Source of the DNA: Podarcis filfolensis
Lineage: Eukaryota
DNA: 64,000 nt
Assembly: GCA_964270895.1 (NCBI GenBank)
Contig: OZ185436.1
Direction: 5' to 3' (one strand)
Shown: piece after piece, positions 9,996-61,519 of the stretch
How positions within the stretch are numbered: position 1 is the stretch's first letter
Layout of the letters: every line of letters begins with the position of its first letter
The notes under the pieces: generated by a model
The model's database searches: none
What the model was told of the DNA's origin: nothing
The model's input: the letters and a program-made list of their open reading frames with translations, nothing else
Made by a program: the position numbers and the translations under genes

Positions 9996-10035
9996 CAAGT
10001 GCTACAAACCTAAAGAGAAACTAAGGAAGGCATAC

Positions 10036-10633
10036 CTTTCCCTTCAATTCCTGGCCCAAACACTTTGACTTGACTTGTGTCCACAGCCGGATCAACTTTG
10101 ACCCGTGCAGGGAAGCTTGGCACTGGTTCTCCGCCATATTTCATCTTGAGTGTGTACATCCCGGCAGAAAGGGGGACGTATGTAACTGCGTAGGTTCCAT
10201 CCTTGTTATCCTGAACCTCGACATCTGCCTTGGAGCCAGAATCAGACACAGCTTCCATATCCAGAGTCCCAGGCCCAGCTTCTGAGCAGTCTACGTGTAG
10301 CAAGCCCGCTTCCCCCACTTTGCCACGTTCAAGCCCAGGGCCTGTGGCGACTACTTTAGAAGCGTCAAACGGCATTTCAACGTCTGCTCTGAAAGGTGAG
10401 CCAGGAATATGGACGTCTTCAAAGAGGATGTTCACAAGGTATTCGCCAGGTTTCGTAGGCAAGTAGGAGACTGAGCAAGTGCCGTCCCCATTATCAGAAC
10501 ATTCTATCTTGGCTTCGCACGGGCCTTCGACTGTCAACCCCAGACCACCAGTTCCAGCTCCTTTGGTGTCTATTGTGAATTCAGCAGGCTTTCCAACAAG
10601 GCCTCCTTGAAGACCTGGACCATAGGCTCTCAC
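10036..10633 (-). CDS. FLNB: FLNB exon 21 (598 nt): [32 protein letters not shown]...[11 protein letters not shown]
   Basis: AG at 10634-10635, GT at 10034-10035; ORF track 10010..10633. Confidence 0.97.
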
Positions 10634-11727
10634 CTGGGAAGGACAGGAAAGTGCTGAATTAAGTATTTAGCCAGGAAGAGATCGGAGCCAGTTCTAGAGT
10701 TCTCTTATGTTAGTGGTCTGAAGTCACTAAATAGATGTATAAGAACCAAATAGTATTTCTACTGTTCAAAGGTACTGTTATAACCACTATCACAAGTTAT
10801 CGTTATCACAAGTCAGCAAGATTTCAAGCTCAACATTTTTTTCTTCAATTTTGAAAACGTAGCGACATTGCACAACAGTTGGCCTAATTAGCATATTGCC
10901 GCCAACTTGATTCTCATTAATCTAATCTGTTTTGAAAGCAAGAGAGTTGACCCAATCAGCACAAAGGAAAACAAGAGCTAAAACGGTCCCATGTGATTTA
11001 TCATTAACTTCTTCAGAAATTGCCAACATTTCTTCAACAGGAACTACGAAAGAAATAGGCCTTTTAATCCTGCCAGCTATTACAAGGCTCAACATGCATT
11101 AAAATAACGTAGAAGCTTAGATCGTTACCAAAACACCTGACATTAATGCGTAATCACAGATGATCCAAAATAATTCTGAGTAAATTGTAATGTCTTATAT
11201 CAACTCATTGCACAATCTAACAATTTTACCAATTTGTAATATATGAGAACGCCAAGAAACAATTAAGATCCATGGCTATTACCGTACATCTTTTGGAACA
11301 TTTCTGAGTCCATAATGAATTTGAGGGAAATTGAATGGTGGGGGATAAATATCAATAGACTATTTGAAGGGGTAATGAATGGGGATAGCATAAGGGCAAT
11401 TTGATTTGAAGGAGGATCTGCTGGGAAACTGGGTCAAATTAACTAAGAGGAAGTGCTCTGGGGTAATCTGAGAGGGTGTAAATTAAGTAATTTGGGTGGT
11501 TAATAAGTCTAAGTTTCTGTGAAATTTGAATTCAAATTCATGTAAGGTTAGCAAATGCACTTCTATGTCTATGGGCCCATGCCCCAAATTTGCGTCTAAG
11601 GGCTTCTGCTAAAAGATAATATTTGTCACACTTTCCAACAGTGTAATGCACATACATCACAACTTGCCAAGCAATGGAAGCATCCAAATCTCACCCATCC
11701 ATGTAGCAAGGGTTAGAAACAGCCTAC

Positions 11728-54400: not shown

Positions 54401-55829
54401 TGTCTACTAGTGCTCATGGACATTTGGGTTCCATGTTTCCTTTGAGCCTTTGCCATTAAACCAAACTGCATCTCCTACCACCAGCAGACCACTACATTCA
54501 GTGCTGCAGTTTGTATTTCTTATTCAAGACTGCTCACTTGGGTGAATCATTAAGGAGTGTAGTGTAGGCGATATACTAGGATTTTATTGCTCATGAAAAA
54601 ACCTGCCAGGTTTACTGAAGGAAAAGAATTCCCACAAAGATCTGGCAATATATACCGAATGAGGCGCACACTCATAACCTGTACTTCAGGAGTGGCGCTC
54701 TCAATCACACAGCAATCACGATTTTAAAAGTTTGGATCAATTCCCACTTCTTACACTTTCATTTGCAACCCAATTGTGAGCCTAAGAAGAAAGCTACATT
54801 GGAACTTGCTCGGGGCAAATGAACCAAAATGGTTCACTAAAATATCAGTTATTAAATTTGATAGCTAGTCATTAGCTGCATGTTAACTGCCAAAATACAG
54901 GTGCTTAACTATGCATCTTCCAAAAAAGGATTCATATGTCTCTTGTTGACTGAAGCAGCTTTCAATATTGAGGTATATGCTACTAAGTAAGAGTCTAAAT
55001 TCCAGCTACCACTACCGGTTTAGCAGAGAACAATTCATTACGTAAATCTGCATCTAGACATGAGCTACAAGACACTAGGGAGATGATCATTCAGGGAAGG
55101 GTTTTGGGCAGTTATATTTAAGGTTTCAGTATTGCAATGTAATATAGAAAGAGGGTGACAAAATAAGGTATTCTTTAGATTATTGTGATGCACTTATATT
55201 TGAAATGCGGTATTTTAGACCTAAGCACCGCTGAACAGGGCTATCCATAGCAATGCCAGATTTTATCCGATTCAGGAACATAAACACCTGGAGCAAAATT
55301 AGTAGGGCTGTTTGTACTTAAGATTTCAGTAAGAACTTCCTAACAAGTTGCAAGTTTATAGATCACACTGAGGCTCAATCCTATTTCAAGCAAGGTGATT
55401 CTTTTATAAGATAACCTATTCCAGCAACTGAATCGGAGGTATAGCTGCATGCTGGTGGAACCTTCATGAGATTCTGAAGTTCCCCTACTTTGCTTTAGGC
55501 TGCAATCCTATACCTGGGCAAAGTCCAGTGAACTCAGTGAGATTTAACTTGGGAGGCAACATGCATGGAATTTCGTGTTCAAGTTCTAGCTATGGCACAG
55601 AATGCCTTCCAAGACCACACAGGAACTTTTGACCCTTCCTGTCCCATGATGAGTGACAAAATACCTACAAGAAGGAGGATAGTCCATCAGCCTGCTTGTG
55701 CCTCACAGGAGGTGAAGCTAAAGCAGCTGTAAAGCAAAGCTTGATCCTTTGATCTCTAATCCTTTGGAATGTATCAAAATGATGCCGCCACCAAATTATA
55801 CCTCTGCGATTCCCTGGCCCGAAGATAAG

Positions 55830-56645
55830 TGTCAGGGAATCGGGAGCAGGAGCAATGGGGAGAGAGGAATTGGAGAGCGAAGGGGAAGAATCCGAGGGCA
55901 GCGTAGGGGAGTATGACAGTGGCCCGAGAGATTCCATGAGCTTCTCCAGCGAATCAGAAGATTCCCAGAAGGGGGCGCTGATGGTCAGGGCAAGGGGGGT
56001 CCCAGGGGGGACGCACCAGAAACAAGGAGCCAGAGGGGAACCCCAAAACAGCAGTGGAGGATCGGGACCAGTTTCCCCACCAGAGCGTAGTGGGGGGGAA
56101 GAGTCACATGTGTCAGGGCCAGCGTCTCCTCCAGAGAGGGAGTCAGGGCTGACCACGCCTCCATCGGAGAGTGGAGGAACGGAAGGGAGGTCAGTTGCAG
56201 CTAGCCCCCCCGAAGGGGGAAGCAGTGACAGCAGCAGTGAAACGGTCAGGAGGAAAGCTGCTGGCTGGGCGCGCGCACCAAGTTCAAATGTGCAGGCGCG
56301 CGGGACAGCAGGAGACCCGGATGGGGAACCAGCTCCTAAAGCCCGCCGGAGGGAGGGAGAAGGCTCAGGGGAATCTGCGTCAGAGGAGGCTAGAAAGGGC
56401 GAGACCCCGGCGGGCAGGCGGACCCAGAGGAGGAAAGAGCAGCGGAAAAGGTGGAGCAAGGCTAGAATCTTAAATTGGTGTCAAGGGGGAGGAGACTCAG
56501 ACGGAGCATCAGTGGTCTAACGGTTGAGACGTAGAGCTGCGCGCTGCGGCTTTGGAAGTGAAACTGAACTTCAATAAAGACTTTTGTACTTAACAACGAA
56601 GCAGCGTTGGTCCTTTGTGAGCTGGGACCTAGGGTAGCTCTGACA
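55830..56645 (+). mobile_element. Solo LTR (816 bp) of an LTR retroelement, containing a 221-codon ORF
   Basis: Termini TGTCAG...CTGACA, perfect 5-bp TSD ATAAG (55825-55829 and 56646-56650), AATAAA at 56573-56578, CpG-rich. Confidence 0.9.
55855..56520 (+). CDS. Intact 221-aa ORF inside the solo LTR (acidic N-terminus, SPPE repeats, Arg-rich C-terminus); function unknown
   Basis: ORF track; the frame is open from the LTR 5' end to TAA at 56518-56520. Confidence 0.45.
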   Translation: MGREELESEGEESEGSVGEYDSGPRDSMSFSSESEDSQKGALMVRARGVPGGTHQKQGARGEPQNSSGGSGPVSPPERSGGEESHVSGPASPPERESGLTTPPSESGGTEGRSVAASPPEGGSSDSSSETVRRKAAGWARAPSSNVQARGTAGDPDGEPAPKARRREGEGSGESASEEARKGETPAGRRTQRRKEQRKRWSKARILNWCQGGGDSDGASVV

Positions 56646-59600
56646 ATAAGTTTATGCCTCTCTTTAGGTGACATGACATGTTAGCATTTAAAGCAGCTTG
56701 GAGAATTCGGGATATTTGGGAAGAGCACTTGCTCCAGCATCCTATTTTCACAATGGCCAGCCAGATGCTTATGGGAAATCTGAAAGCAGGTCCTGAGCGC
56801 AACAACACTCTCCCCCACCTATGACTCCCACCAACTGATATTCAAAGGCGTACTTCCTTCAACAATGGAGGGAGAACACAGCTATCATTAAGCTCACCCA
56901 GGGCACACATTTCAGAAACTTTCCTTAAAACATGTTGCAATAAATCTGATAGAATCAAATATATGGCTGCTACATAGAATGTACTGTAATCCACACATGC
57001 AGGAGCCTAACACTTCCTGCTTTGCCCAGACATTGGAGTACCAACTTGTAAGAGGCAGCTTGCCATCTCCCAGGGGCAGTACAGGACGGGCGGGGCCTTG
57101 TCTAGTGAAAGGCAAAATTTCCCCCACCCACCACAACAGTTTTTAATGGGGTTTCTGAAACTAGCAGCACTAGTTGCAGGAGTACACATTATTCTGCTTG
57201 TTACTTCTGTTGGCGCTTTGCACCAACAATATTCTGCTGTTAATATTTAAACTGAAAAGAAATCAGAGTGAAGTAATCCCTGGAAAAGCAAGTTTGCAAC
57301 AGCTGTCAAAGGTATTTTCCCACAAGGAGTCTGATTCAGAGCTCAGCAAGGTTTCCGTGCTTCAAAACATATGGGTTACATACAGAGAACCAACATTCTT
57401 TTCTCCTATACTTTTCCTTGAAGCCTCAACTCTATTTACACAGACAGGACGTCTCTGAAGTTCTGTTTCAGGTCTCTAACTCAAGGTCACGTTTTGCTCA
57501 TAACATAGTTCTATACTCCAGAGACACCACTGCAGAGAGAACCGAAGTTACTTCCCCGGTTAAAACTCAGACAGACTTCCAAACAGGGCAACAATTGTTA
57601 GAAAGTTAGATTTCAGCTCCCACAGGCAGGTATTAGTTTTATTTTCTTTTGCTTGTTAACACACCAGTTCTGTGCTACTACTTGGCTGCTAATAGAGAAC
57701 ACAGCAAGATCTGGCTATGAGAACCACTTGCTATTAACCCATCTTTTTAAAAGTTTGAAAGCTGCCTTCATTTGCAAATGATGTACTTTATACTCATGCC
57801 CCCACTATTTCTGTTGGAGGTTCAGAGTAGCATTCAGTGCTCCCAAAATATATCCATTACTGCCTTGAAAAAAGCTGCATCTGCAACTGAGAGCATTAAA
57901 CTATCATTGAGAATGGTTACCAAGTTGCTTGGTGGCAGAGATTTTTTGTTTTGGGTTTTGGCCAATGGATGAAGTCTCTGCCCAGAAAAACCCTGCCAAT
58001 TAAGTTTATCTTTGTGAAAATGTTTTAGGAGTATTTGCCACTTTACTGATACCACATTTGCAACTCCTGCGCTTAAAATGGGAATTATGGGCAGTTGCTA
58101 GTAGATGCATAATTTCCTCCCTAAATATCACATAACCTTCATCCATAAACATTCACGGACAAGTTGGATAATGCGCTTTTTCTGCCTTAGGGGTATGGGC
58201 CTGCCTTGGTAAAAACCTAATTCTGCAAGACCCCTTCCTGCTTTCATGCTCTATGGACCCAACAGGCTATGCACATTCACTCCCAATTATCCCCCTTTGA
58301 TTTACTTCCCAGAAAAAATGCAAAGGTTCATGCAGCTGTTAAAAGCAGAAGTGTTCAATTTTGTGTCACTTTAGAATTGTGATTGGCAGCAGAAAAGTGG
58401 GTGCGCTGATGGTGTCGCTTCAGCTGCTGAAAAAGCCATTTAAGATTTTTTTATAGTTAACATTTCTAAGCCACAGTAAAATATTTTGTTTGTACTACCT
58501 ACATGTTTTCACAAACACAACTGTTGTGAAGTATATCCTGCATTCTTGGTATATACTACAGGTGTCCACAAGGCATCAGGTTTAGCCTCTCGATAATTTC
58601 AGCTGGCATTCTATCCATGCAATATTATCCAGAAACACCTCCTAGTGCTATTTTGCATTATTTATTCCCTCCTTTAATACAAGTTAGGCATTTTGCAAGA
58701 AAAGATTCCCAACACAAAAGACACTATAAACACAGTCAAAGCAACAGTACTTAGCTGCAGAGCTTTCTATACAATTAATGGCTATTGTAATCAGACTACA
58801 TTTATCCATTCTATGGTTCAACTGTATCTTGGAAGTTTGTTGTGCTTAGGACACTGGCAGCCTTTTAATCACAGCTTCTGAAATGCCATCTAGTCCTTTA
58901 CAAATGGTTTTTGACTAGACTGAAGCTGACTAGTATCTTCCCTCTCTACCACTACCACCTCCCAACTTGTAAGCTTGGAAAAATGCAGCTTCAAAAGAGA
59001 AAATATGGAGTGTCATTATCCATGGACAATTTTTAAGGGAGTCCCAATACCAGGTTTTACAGTTTCTTGTATTCGCAGAGGAATGGACTAGATGACCGTG
59101 AGATCCTTTCACACTTCGATTCTACAACACATGCTGCATATGTACCTGCAACTCAGGATAACACCATGCATCTAATCTAGTGGGCTAGTCCACAAAAGCT
59201 TATGCCATCAGGATGTCAGTCTTTAAGGGCTCAACAAGATTGTATTTTCCTGCAGCTATCCCTTTGATAGGTGACTAGTTAATAGTGCACAACACCTTAT
59301 AGGTGTGATGTGTCAATTATGTATACCCAGACTACCATACATAGCCTATCATTTTGCAGTTTGTCCCACTGAACCAAGAACCTAGTCACAGCTGACTCAA
59401 CAGCAGTGCCAACTGAAAAAATAGGTGTGAGTAGTCTACCAAATTAGTCTTAATGTCAAATCCTAATGGTTAAAATAGATGTACTATCACAGTCACACTT
59501 TTAGAAATCCAGACACGTCAGAATACTTGCTAAGGTATTAAAACAATTTAACAAGATATTATTAGCATTCCTTATATACTGCATCCTTCGTGCACAGAAC

Positions 59601-60756
59601 CAACAGCACAGCGCATTTTGGCCACACCACATTCTCCAGAGAATAAAATGAGAAGGCCGGCTGGGTTTTCTTCCTGACATGCTACTTGAGGAGCAGAGCA
59701 CTGCTTTGCAAACTATCTCCACAAGCCCTGCAGCTGCTCTTTTTCCATCTTTAATTTTAAACGGGAACCAAGTTCAGCCCAATGCCTGCTTCTCCCAGGA
59801 AAGCAGAGAAGAAGCTGGTCTCAGATCAGAGACTGGGCTTTTATACAGCTCAAACCTTTCAGAAACCTCCAGCATGGAAACCGGTCTTTGCCGCCAAAAG
59901 GAAGTGGCTCTACCTGCTGGGAGGGAGGCACCTCAGGAAATCCTGTCTGAGCAGCGCCAGCCATTTCTCCGCTTTCCCAGGATTAGGCTCAGGCCCCGTT
60001 TACGGTTCAATGCGAGCCCGGGGACGGGGGAGTTTGTAGATGGTGGAGACACCATTAATTGGGGTGGGGGAAGAGAGCATGCAAACACCCGACGCCTGGG
60101 CGTCCCTCCTCCTCCTCCCAACCCGCGTGCTTTACAACAGTACTTAAGAGAACGAGAAGTGGGGGGGGGCTCTAGACAGCTTAGGGATCCTCCTTTGGCG
60201 GGCGGTAGGCTAAGAGCCGAGCTGGTTTCAAAGCTCGCAGGGTGCAACAAGCCGGCAGGTACCCGCCCCGGGAGGGTCGGGTTGGGCGGCTCCTCCCCAC
60301 AGCCTCCCTCCAAGCTGGGCTCCCGGGGGCTCGTCGGCGCCTCAGGAAGACGCTCAGCAGCAGAGCCGCGCCCACCTCGCCCGCCCACCCGCTCGCTATT
60401 CTAGCGGAGCGGCAACTCGACGGGGCACCCACTGCCAGGCGCTTTGCCCCCACTTCTGCCTTCCTCACGCCGGGAGAAATTCAGGCACCTCCCCGCAGCT
60501 GCGAACAGACGAGCTGGTTTGAGTTTGCCCCCAAAACCCTGAGCCGTAACCCCCAGGCACAAGAGGTGCCCGGACGGCTGGGTTGAAACGAAGTACCATG
60601 CCCGACTAAAGAGGTCCGGGGATGCAGAAACTGAGCTGTTTCCCTCAGGCAGCCTGCAGCCCGTAAGCGCTGCTCTCGCCACACGCGGAAGCCCGCCCGC
60701 CCGCCTAGGCGTCCCCGTTCTTTTGCCCAGCCCCGACGGGCGCGCCACAAGCTCAC

Positions 60757-61048
60757 CGATGGAGACCAGCTTGATGTTCTCCTTCTCCAGGAACTCGAGC
60801 GCCACGGACACGTTCTCCAGCTGCATCTGCCGGAAGGTGGGTCGCTGGTGGTACTTGCGGTACATGCGCTTCTGGCTCAGCACCTCCAGCAGCGCGATGA
60901 GGCGCAGCCCGTCGCTCAGGTCGAACTGCAGGTTACCGATGCGCTTGTTCACGCAGCGGAGGTGCTCGTTGCACCAGCGGGTGAAGGTGTTCTGCTGGAT
61001 CCGCTTCCAGGGCGCGTCCTCGGCCAGGTCCTTCTCGGTCACCGGCAT
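60757..61048 (-). CDS. FLNB: FLNB coding exon 1 from the canonical Met (292 nt): [38 protein letters not shown]...ENIKLVSI
   Basis: ATG at 61046-61048 (gccgcagccATG), donor G|GTGAGC at 60755-60756; calponin-homology domain 1. Confidence 0.98.
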
Positions 61049-61231
61049 GGCTGCGGCGGGGTCGCCTTCGAGGTCGCTGCGGCCCAAGGGAGCAGGAGAA
61101 GGAAGGTGGTGGAGGAGATGTTGCTGGTGCTGTTGCTGCTGCTCCTGCCACTGAGGCTGCAAGCTGCTGCTGCTGCCGCCGCCGCCGCTCCAGTCACTGC
61201 GAGCAGCCTGGCCCCGCGCCTGCGTGCTCAT
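61049..61231 (-). CDS. FLNB: Possible 61-aa in-frame N-terminal extension of FLNB ([61 protein letters not shown])
   Basis: In-frame ATG at 61229-61231 (ctcgacATGa, purine at -3), no stop before the canonical Met, and no other ATG between it and the TATA box. Confidence 0.6.
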
Positions 61232-61519
61232 GTCGAGGCCGCCGCCCCGCCTCCTCCTGGCGGTAATGAGCGGGCAGGCCGACCAACCCGCCCGCCGAGG
61301 CTGGTTTGCTGGCTCCCTCCCTCGCGCTGCTGCTTCTGGGTCGCAGCCAAGTGTACAAGCGGCGAAACCTACAGGGGAAGAGAAGGAACAGCGCCGTTAG
61401 CTTGGCAACCCCAGCCGCCCGGCTCCACCAGCCCAGCGTCGCCTCCGGAGCGCACACGTGCTCGCCACCAAACAATCCTGCAGAGAGGAACTATTGCGCG
61501 CCGTCTGCGCCTGGAGATG

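Follow-up and report, generated by a model that had tools for sequence, protein, structure and literature searches.

The open frame that fills the U3 of a solo LTR in Podarcis filfolensis is the in-frame C-terminus of Pol, namely the integrase tail beyond the chromodomain, and no separate accessory gene, and it evolves as a protein under purifying selection. Its parent is an env-less Ty3/Gypsy chromovirus of a lacertid lizard, not a retrovirus. We consider it highly probable that this 3' end of pol, which runs through the PPT, specifies a likely disordered integrase tail with motifs for nuclear import and chromatin tethering. The earlier note on this DNA had interpreted the frame as an accessory or regulatory protein of a retrovirus-type element, which both the fusion to Pol and the nature of the parent contradict.

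The solo LTR and the length of its open frame

The 816-bp solo LTR, with the termini TGTCAG...CTGACA, occupies positions 55830-56645 of the window (the whole stretch of 64,000 nucleotides that was analysed), and its parts are collected in Table 1. Examination of the sequence confirmed what had been described from it before, that is the LTR ends, the ATAAG TSD, AATAAA at 56573, the frame at 55831-56520 with its ATG at 55855, and the composition of the U3 peptide. The Ser/acidic block holds possible CK2 sites, judged by the CK2 consensus, and the Arg/Lys-rich stretch that ends in LxW is a reasonably likely candidate for an NLS or chromatin-contact motif. TTAAAT at 56470, 29 nt 5' of the inferred RNA start, might be a TATA box, but only as a weak candidate, since it is not matched exactly in family E and the DNA at this place differs in distant families.

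Table 1. Features of the solo LTR and its flanks, in window coordinates
Feature	Position	Strand	Basis
TSD, left copy, ATAAG, 5 bp	55825..55829	+	Sequence
Solo LTR; group A, a high-copy and young family of Ty3/Gypsy chromoviruses	55830..56645	+	Copies and full-length parents
U3-encoded 3' end of the Pol/integrase frame, 229 codons; TAA at 56518-56520	55831..56520	+	Continuity with Pol; selection
Group A-specific ATG, 221 aa from there; start not conserved	55855..55857	+	Group alignment
Ser/acidic block SSESEDSQKGA, conserved	55945..55977	+	Alignment; A vs E dN/dS 0.12-0.19 over the first 60 codons
Arg/Lys-rich stretch running into [IV]LxWC; most conserved U3 block	56413..56481	+	dN/dS 0.04-0.17 where measurable
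Self-primer AGACGGAGCAT, 11 nt, overlapping the frame's last codons	56499..56509	+	Complementarity to the PBS of full-length copies
AATAAA, putative polyadenylation-type signal	56573..56578	+	Sequence
TSD, right copy, ATAAG, 5 bp	56646..56650	+	Sequence

The solo LTR lies antisense inside a filamin gene, between a CH-domain exon some 4 kb away and a Filamin-repeat exon (exons at window positions 10010-10663 and 60404-61393, minus strand); being one gene-body insertion, it is no test of insertion bias. A solo LTR of this kind would make no U3 tail protein, and the copy in the filamin intron is most likely a silent by-product.

Only 79 of the 691 nucleotides of U3 are T (11%), so that stop codons are not easily formed in the frame, the reverse of the earlier expectation that they should arise readily on a purine-rich strand. 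When the LTR was shuffled 3000 times by dinucleotides, 21 of the products contained a plus-strand frame of at least 229 codons, and 80 contained one if either strand was counted; plus-strand frames of this length were also present in 16 of 20000 block shuffles and in 597 of 20000 second-order Markov strings. These null models place a frame of such length in 0.08-3% of the trials, and an antisense frame of 217 codons within the LTR is open as well. The length of the frame is therefore by itself merely suggestive. We discount the antisense frame as following from the sense frame, the two having third positions in common, and it contains a stop in most A, B and C copies. The S/T-P-P-E repeats noticed before do exist in the peptide, but a repeat check did not support a tandem array at the DNA level, and the units sit where the frame is least constrained. 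A Pfam search with the U3 peptide matched no family.

Continuity of the U3 frame with Pol

With the last 56 codons as query, frames of 1583, 1588 and 1357 codons were recovered. Single stop-free frames from protease to the U3 stop were found in three elements (L092, 1583 codons; L093, 1588 codons; L214, 1585 codons), all with the order protease, integrase, chromodomain-like region, about 160 codons, PPT and the whole of U3, and the frame is thus seen to extend 5' of the PPT, as the earlier note had thought worth checking. Among 13 3' ends aligned to L092, the A/D-type register was kept in six of ten, the other four having net private frameshifts upstream of the LTR, and three B-type ends were damaged or uninformative. 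Family E, which is very young and has 90% Pol identity, gave 150 matches, 70 of them in frames of 1100 or more codons (51 of those 1860 or more) and the remaining 80 mostly in 5' or solo LTRs. The same tail forms the C-terminus of a 1498-aa Pol of Podarcis muralis (UniRef A0A670KNJ5, P0008), and a P. lilfordi protein (P0005) spans the PPT. There is no conserved independent start and no stop between the U3 frame and pol; the codon at the position of the group A ATG is Leu or Gln in B, C and D, and the first Met falls at codon 9, 14, 36 or 126 according to the group, the last being that of E.

Purifying selection on the U3-encoded tail

The search of the genome for copies of the LTR, as the earlier note had advised, yielded 3163 candidates, the best 40 of which scored 98-100% identical, and recovered full-length parents. 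The frame was kept in 24 of the 30 group A LTR copies fetched, which in copies so nearly identical shows only that the source element possessed it. In a set of 153 LTRs, fetched in part by protein search and hence favouring intact copies, the frame was kept in 116 (A 39/60, B 21/30, C 23/27, D 3/6, E 30/30) and broken in 37; a majority of broken copies, which the earlier note would have taken as the mark of a chance frame, was not what we found.

All selection comparisons are between natural copies, and dN/dS was obtained from 95 distinct open copies. Among subfamilies A, B, C and E the U3 gave dN/dS values of 0.22-0.38, in keeping with the earlier proposal that a real coding frame would show purifying selection; in the same comparisons the values were 0.04-0.17 in the block from the basic stretch to W, while the SPPE-rich middle of U3 is weakly constrained (about 0.3-1.1). 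A against D gave 0.57-0.68 overall. In DNA-only alignments mismatches were in excess at third positions, both against E (84 of 155 mismatches, p=8e-8) and against B (23 of 39, p=9e-4), and the excess against B, C and E holds without CpG sites; against D it is not significant. Indels were to preserve the frame if it is coding, and all subfamily-wide U3 indels in 123 A-D copies are indeed multiples of 3, frameshifting U3 indels being confined to 1-6 copies each and a 1-nt deletion common to 30 copies lying 3' of the stop. Along the tail, L093 compared with L211 gave dN/dS values of 0.06-0.07 in the enzymes, 0.11 in the chromodomain, 0.03 in the FxGF segment, 0.37 in the pre-PPT tail and 0.21 in U3.

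The parent element and its self-priming

On the question of Gypsy element or endogenous retrovirus, raised before, the RT/RH of L093 speaks for the former: it matches Ty3 best, with 242 bits, while retroviral RT scores no more than 86. In the full-length copy L031 gag (Ty3 capsid, CCHC knuckle) and pol (PR, RT, RH, IN and SH3 by Pfam) take up the 5049 bp between the LTRs, and no env gene was found in that internal region. The host's own PSIP1 gene has an exon that is 100% identical to that of Podarcis muralis and 99% to that of Lacerta agilis, as befits a lacertid. The order gag-PR-RT-RH-IN together with a Ty3-like RT is that of Ty3/Gypsy elements (Metaviridae-type), and the parent has none of the marks of an endogenous retrovirus, these being env, a tRNA PBS and a retroviral RT. 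In most full-length copies gag and pol overlap. The sister family E contains both a single 1868-codon gag-pol frame (L211, L215) and two overlapping frames with a 1512-codon pol (L212), and the identical LTR pairs indicate that both forms spread very recently.

Three LTR copies (L070, L076, L103) have an internal gag stretch 5' of the LTR in place of the PPT, which suggests internally deleted elements. Among the matches listed, many full-length but damaged Gypsy copies lie on C19 (43 Mb) of genome G000, and many matches are near contig ends; an accumulation on C19 would be as expected of a W-like chromosome, as far as these ranked matches indicate. Four sequencing runs, presumed to be of RNA, contain contigs from related elements that cover the stretch throughout, from which no strand, start or level can be read.

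The PBS of full-length copies is the 11-nt complement of their own LTR at 56499-56509. Of 10 elements, 9 have a match of 11 nt between self-primer and PBS at the same offset, the covarying sequences being of five kinds, where chance would give 0-1 hits in 3949 positions; in L144 the match is not significant, and in a separate comparison L093 and L140 were unmatched. A self-priming PBS is the signature of the Tf1/sushi group in the available parts of PMC10085805 and PMC6317226, and a PBS complementary to its own R start points to a parent of Tf1/sushi type. The self-primer (~56499) would mark the start of R and of the genomic RNA, 7 codons before the stop, and consequently U3 would be present only at the 3' end of that RNA.

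Chromodomain and FxGF segment upstream of the LTR

AF2 was run on the 442-residue tail with a 14-sequence alignment, and predicted a chromodomain fold (pLDDT ~90) matching CDYL2 and HP1, followed by a short helix (59-66, at low to moderate confidence) and then by disorder. Folding of the C-terminal end, which the earlier note had recommended, did not provide a confident structure for the basic/LxW part (pLDDT ~45). The modelled chromodomain comes after the integrase SH3/GPY-F region, the arrangement that defines a chromovirus. Pfam Chromo matched at E=0.21 in group A and at E=6e-12 in family F. The cage residues are N/R/T in group A, which has lost all three aromatic residues of a type I chromodomain; W alone is kept in family F and L239, and family G has Y/W/Y.

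Directly after the chromodomain comes a segment of the form helix-F-x8/9-[FL]xGF, in which F, G and F are invariant in 18 of 18 segments. This helix-acidic-FxGF segment (for example L093:5742-5852, L137:6812-7048 and L238:1378-1491) is present in every degraded-cage lineage seen, in two copies in family F and L144, and absent from family G. Shuffling reproduced the pattern in 3 and 1 of 5000 trials, values that are optimistic because the pattern was defined after being seen. The segment has the layout of a TIM, with a short helix, an acidic or phosphorylatable linker of 8-16 residues and FxGF. In TND-interacting motifs the FxGF part is needed for LEDGF/HRP2 binding and the linkers are CK2 substrates, according to the accessible text of PMC9987994 and PMC6877644.

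Distribution among related families

At about 62% Pol identity 20 elements were fetched, of which 14 were analysed and 6 had no usable LTR pair. In nine of the 14 the frame continues for 77-110 codons inside U3, as far as a basic stretch with L-x-W or a similar Trp, the other five being broken, and U3 dN/dS within this lineage was 0.23-0.47. Two further lineages read into U3 likewise (L238-241, 4/4; L248-249, 2/3), and the W is invariant in 14 of 14 aligned tails. In family G, whose chromodomain cage is intact, 5 of 20 copies read to the U3 end and 13 stop near the PPT or have no LTR; four members (L224, L227, L235, L244), with the LTR start TGTGATGG, have some 120 U3 codons with a basic RRSARL-type end, and the U3 stop lies within a TATA-like run. 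Eight elements (L137, L140, L143, L144, L239, L248, L093, L211) have the LTR start TGTCAGGG, and in all of them the PPT/LTR junction is spanned by codons for D-V-R; the reading phase is therefore fixed by the end that integrase recognizes. The named relatives that were found belong to Podarcis only.

Proposed function and alternative explanations

Could U3 specify a stand-alone protein of the sag, nef or Rev kind, with its own start or a spliced RNA, beside or instead of the Pol fusion? The ATG at 55855 is found in most A copies and the Arg-rich block is strongly conserved, as such a protein would require. That ATG is, however, missing from B, C, D and E, the position of the first Met varies by group, Pol runs on into the frame without a break both in P. 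muralis and in intact copies, and the inferred transcript start lies just 7 codons 5' of the stop. As for a Rev-like product in particular, the parent lacks env and has no genome with introns that would call for Rev, and nothing was found in support of Rev-like RNA export, which the earlier comparison with Rev had brought to mind. We regard a stand-alone protein as very improbable. Accidental translation of T-poor promoter DNA, in other words a tolerated read-through shaped by stop-avoidance or promoter constraint only, is contradicted by the basic block, where synonymous sites are saturated and dN is 0.08, near that of the enzyme core (0.05-0.06), by the third-position excess that persists without CpG sites, by the retention of L-x-W with different DNA in distant families and by the stop in the antisense frame of most A, B and C copies. 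It can draw on the 11% T of U3, on the 3% of Markov strings that reach the length, on the nearly open antisense frame, on the near neutrality of the U3 middle and on the W codon placed 20 nt 5' of R in both distant lineages, which could reflect promoter constraint; it is already largely refuted and we give it next to no credence.

The tail might instead be cut off Gag-Pol by the protease and have a separate role in the particle, as an RNA/cDNA chaperone or a p12-like tether. A long and disordered tail with a basic end would suit such a role, and selection would look alike whether the tail is attached or cleaved, but the tail adjoins the chromodomain, where known targeting domains sit (PMC3059260, in the part available), and we judge cleavage to be unlikely. 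The reading that we prefer is that of a tail attached to integrase. The genomic RNA would run from the self-primer (~56499) to the 3' R, and with these limits the 3' LTR would be the sole source of translated U3, which would close Gag-Pol; the earlier suggestion that the frame is normally expressed from the 3' LTR of the full-length copy agrees with this layout, under which it would be the only route. The tail would probably remain on integrase after processing, and may resemble the disordered integrase tail of Ty1, with FxGF 5' of the PPT and basic/LxW in U3; a role in import and tethering is suggested by the disorder in the AF2 model and by the agreement of FxGF with the TIM definition.

What the FxGF segment might bind is a more tentative matter. 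From its sequence, helix-acidic-FxGF may bind the LEDGF/HRP2 IBD and replace methyl-lysine reading by the cage-less chromodomain, a proposal that we hold at a little under even chances. The wider scheme, in which histone-methyl reading was swapped for linear motifs on a 400-residue integrase tail, FxGF hijacking LEDGF/HRP2 and basic/LxW being written across the LTR promoter, is possible but should be taken with some reserve. Such a hijack would represent convergence on the HIV tether, and the same DNA would then be enhancer-promoter, self-primer and integrase end.

Comparison with known systems

MMTV sag, lentiviral nef and Rev/Rex are separate proteins, made from spliced RNAs of env-bearing retroviruses. 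The lacertid frame is like them in the overlap of coding sequence with U3 (sag, nef) and in an Arg-rich stretch, but it is part of Pol and lacks a start that is conserved.

The Tf1/sushi elements (V-clade: Sushi-ichi, Amn-san) are alike in the order gag-PR-RT-RH-IN-chromodomain, the lack of env, the 11-nt self-priming PBS, and the gag/pol overlap in most copies and 5-bp TSD, group features given in the portions of PMC10085805 and PMC6317226 at hand. In contrast to them, the lacertid Pol runs about 160 codons past the chromodomain to the PPT and then about 230 through U3, and the group A chromodomain lacks all three cage aromatics. We found no account of a U3-coding Pol end in vertebrate Tf1/sushi elements in the literature searched, which included PMC3601003 and PMC4131045 as partial texts; Repbase/Dfam, Butler 2001 and Kordis 2005 may mention the overlap. 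The same literature, with those two texts again in part, gave no account of FxGF motifs in retrotransposon integrase.

In plants, CRM group A and certain Beta Reina elements have polyproteins that extend into the 3' LTR, as described in the available sections of PMC3059260 and PMC3605345. The closest known systems are plant CRM group A (CR motif/CHDCR), whose targeting motif is LTR-encoded, and the Beta Bingo elements. The lacertid element has the frame into the 3' LTR that characterizes CRM group A, but not its tRNA-Met PBS or its CR motif instead of a chromodomain; it keeps a chromodomain fold upstream and uses a self-primer, and is likened to CRM by layout, not by centromere targeting. An LTR-encoded integrase tail, known in plant centromeric elements, is thus extended to a vertebrate Tf1/sushi lineage, in which the whole U3 is coding, and where lacertid solo LTRs contain long 'hypothetical protein' frames, these are explained as copies of a Pol end, not new genes.

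Ty1 likewise has a large disordered integrase tail (PMC8487063, in part) with short import and targeting motifs, an NLS and a Pol III tether (PMC7459421 and PMC10050235, also in part); being Copia-type, with the tail internal to Pol and not LTR-encoded, it offers a functional analogy only. The TIMs, which are the LEDGF IBD-binding motifs of IWS1, JPO2, MLL1 and JIL-1, have in common with the lacertid segment that a short helix is joined to FxGF by a linker that is acidic or rich in S/T, as set out in the available part of PMC9987994, with DFxGFDE in JIL-1 in that of PMC6877644. Some lacertid families have two copies, as do several host proteins. The candidate motif differs from TIMs in its place on a retrotransposon integrase tail and, in group A, in a linker that is S/T-rich and not acidic; being encoded upstream of the LTR, it is absent from the solo LTR in the window. 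Lentiviral integrase binds the LEDGF IBD through folded domains, and, if FxGF does bind LEDGF, the lacertid element would be a case of a retrotransposon that exploits the integration cofactor of HIV by mimicry of a host motif.
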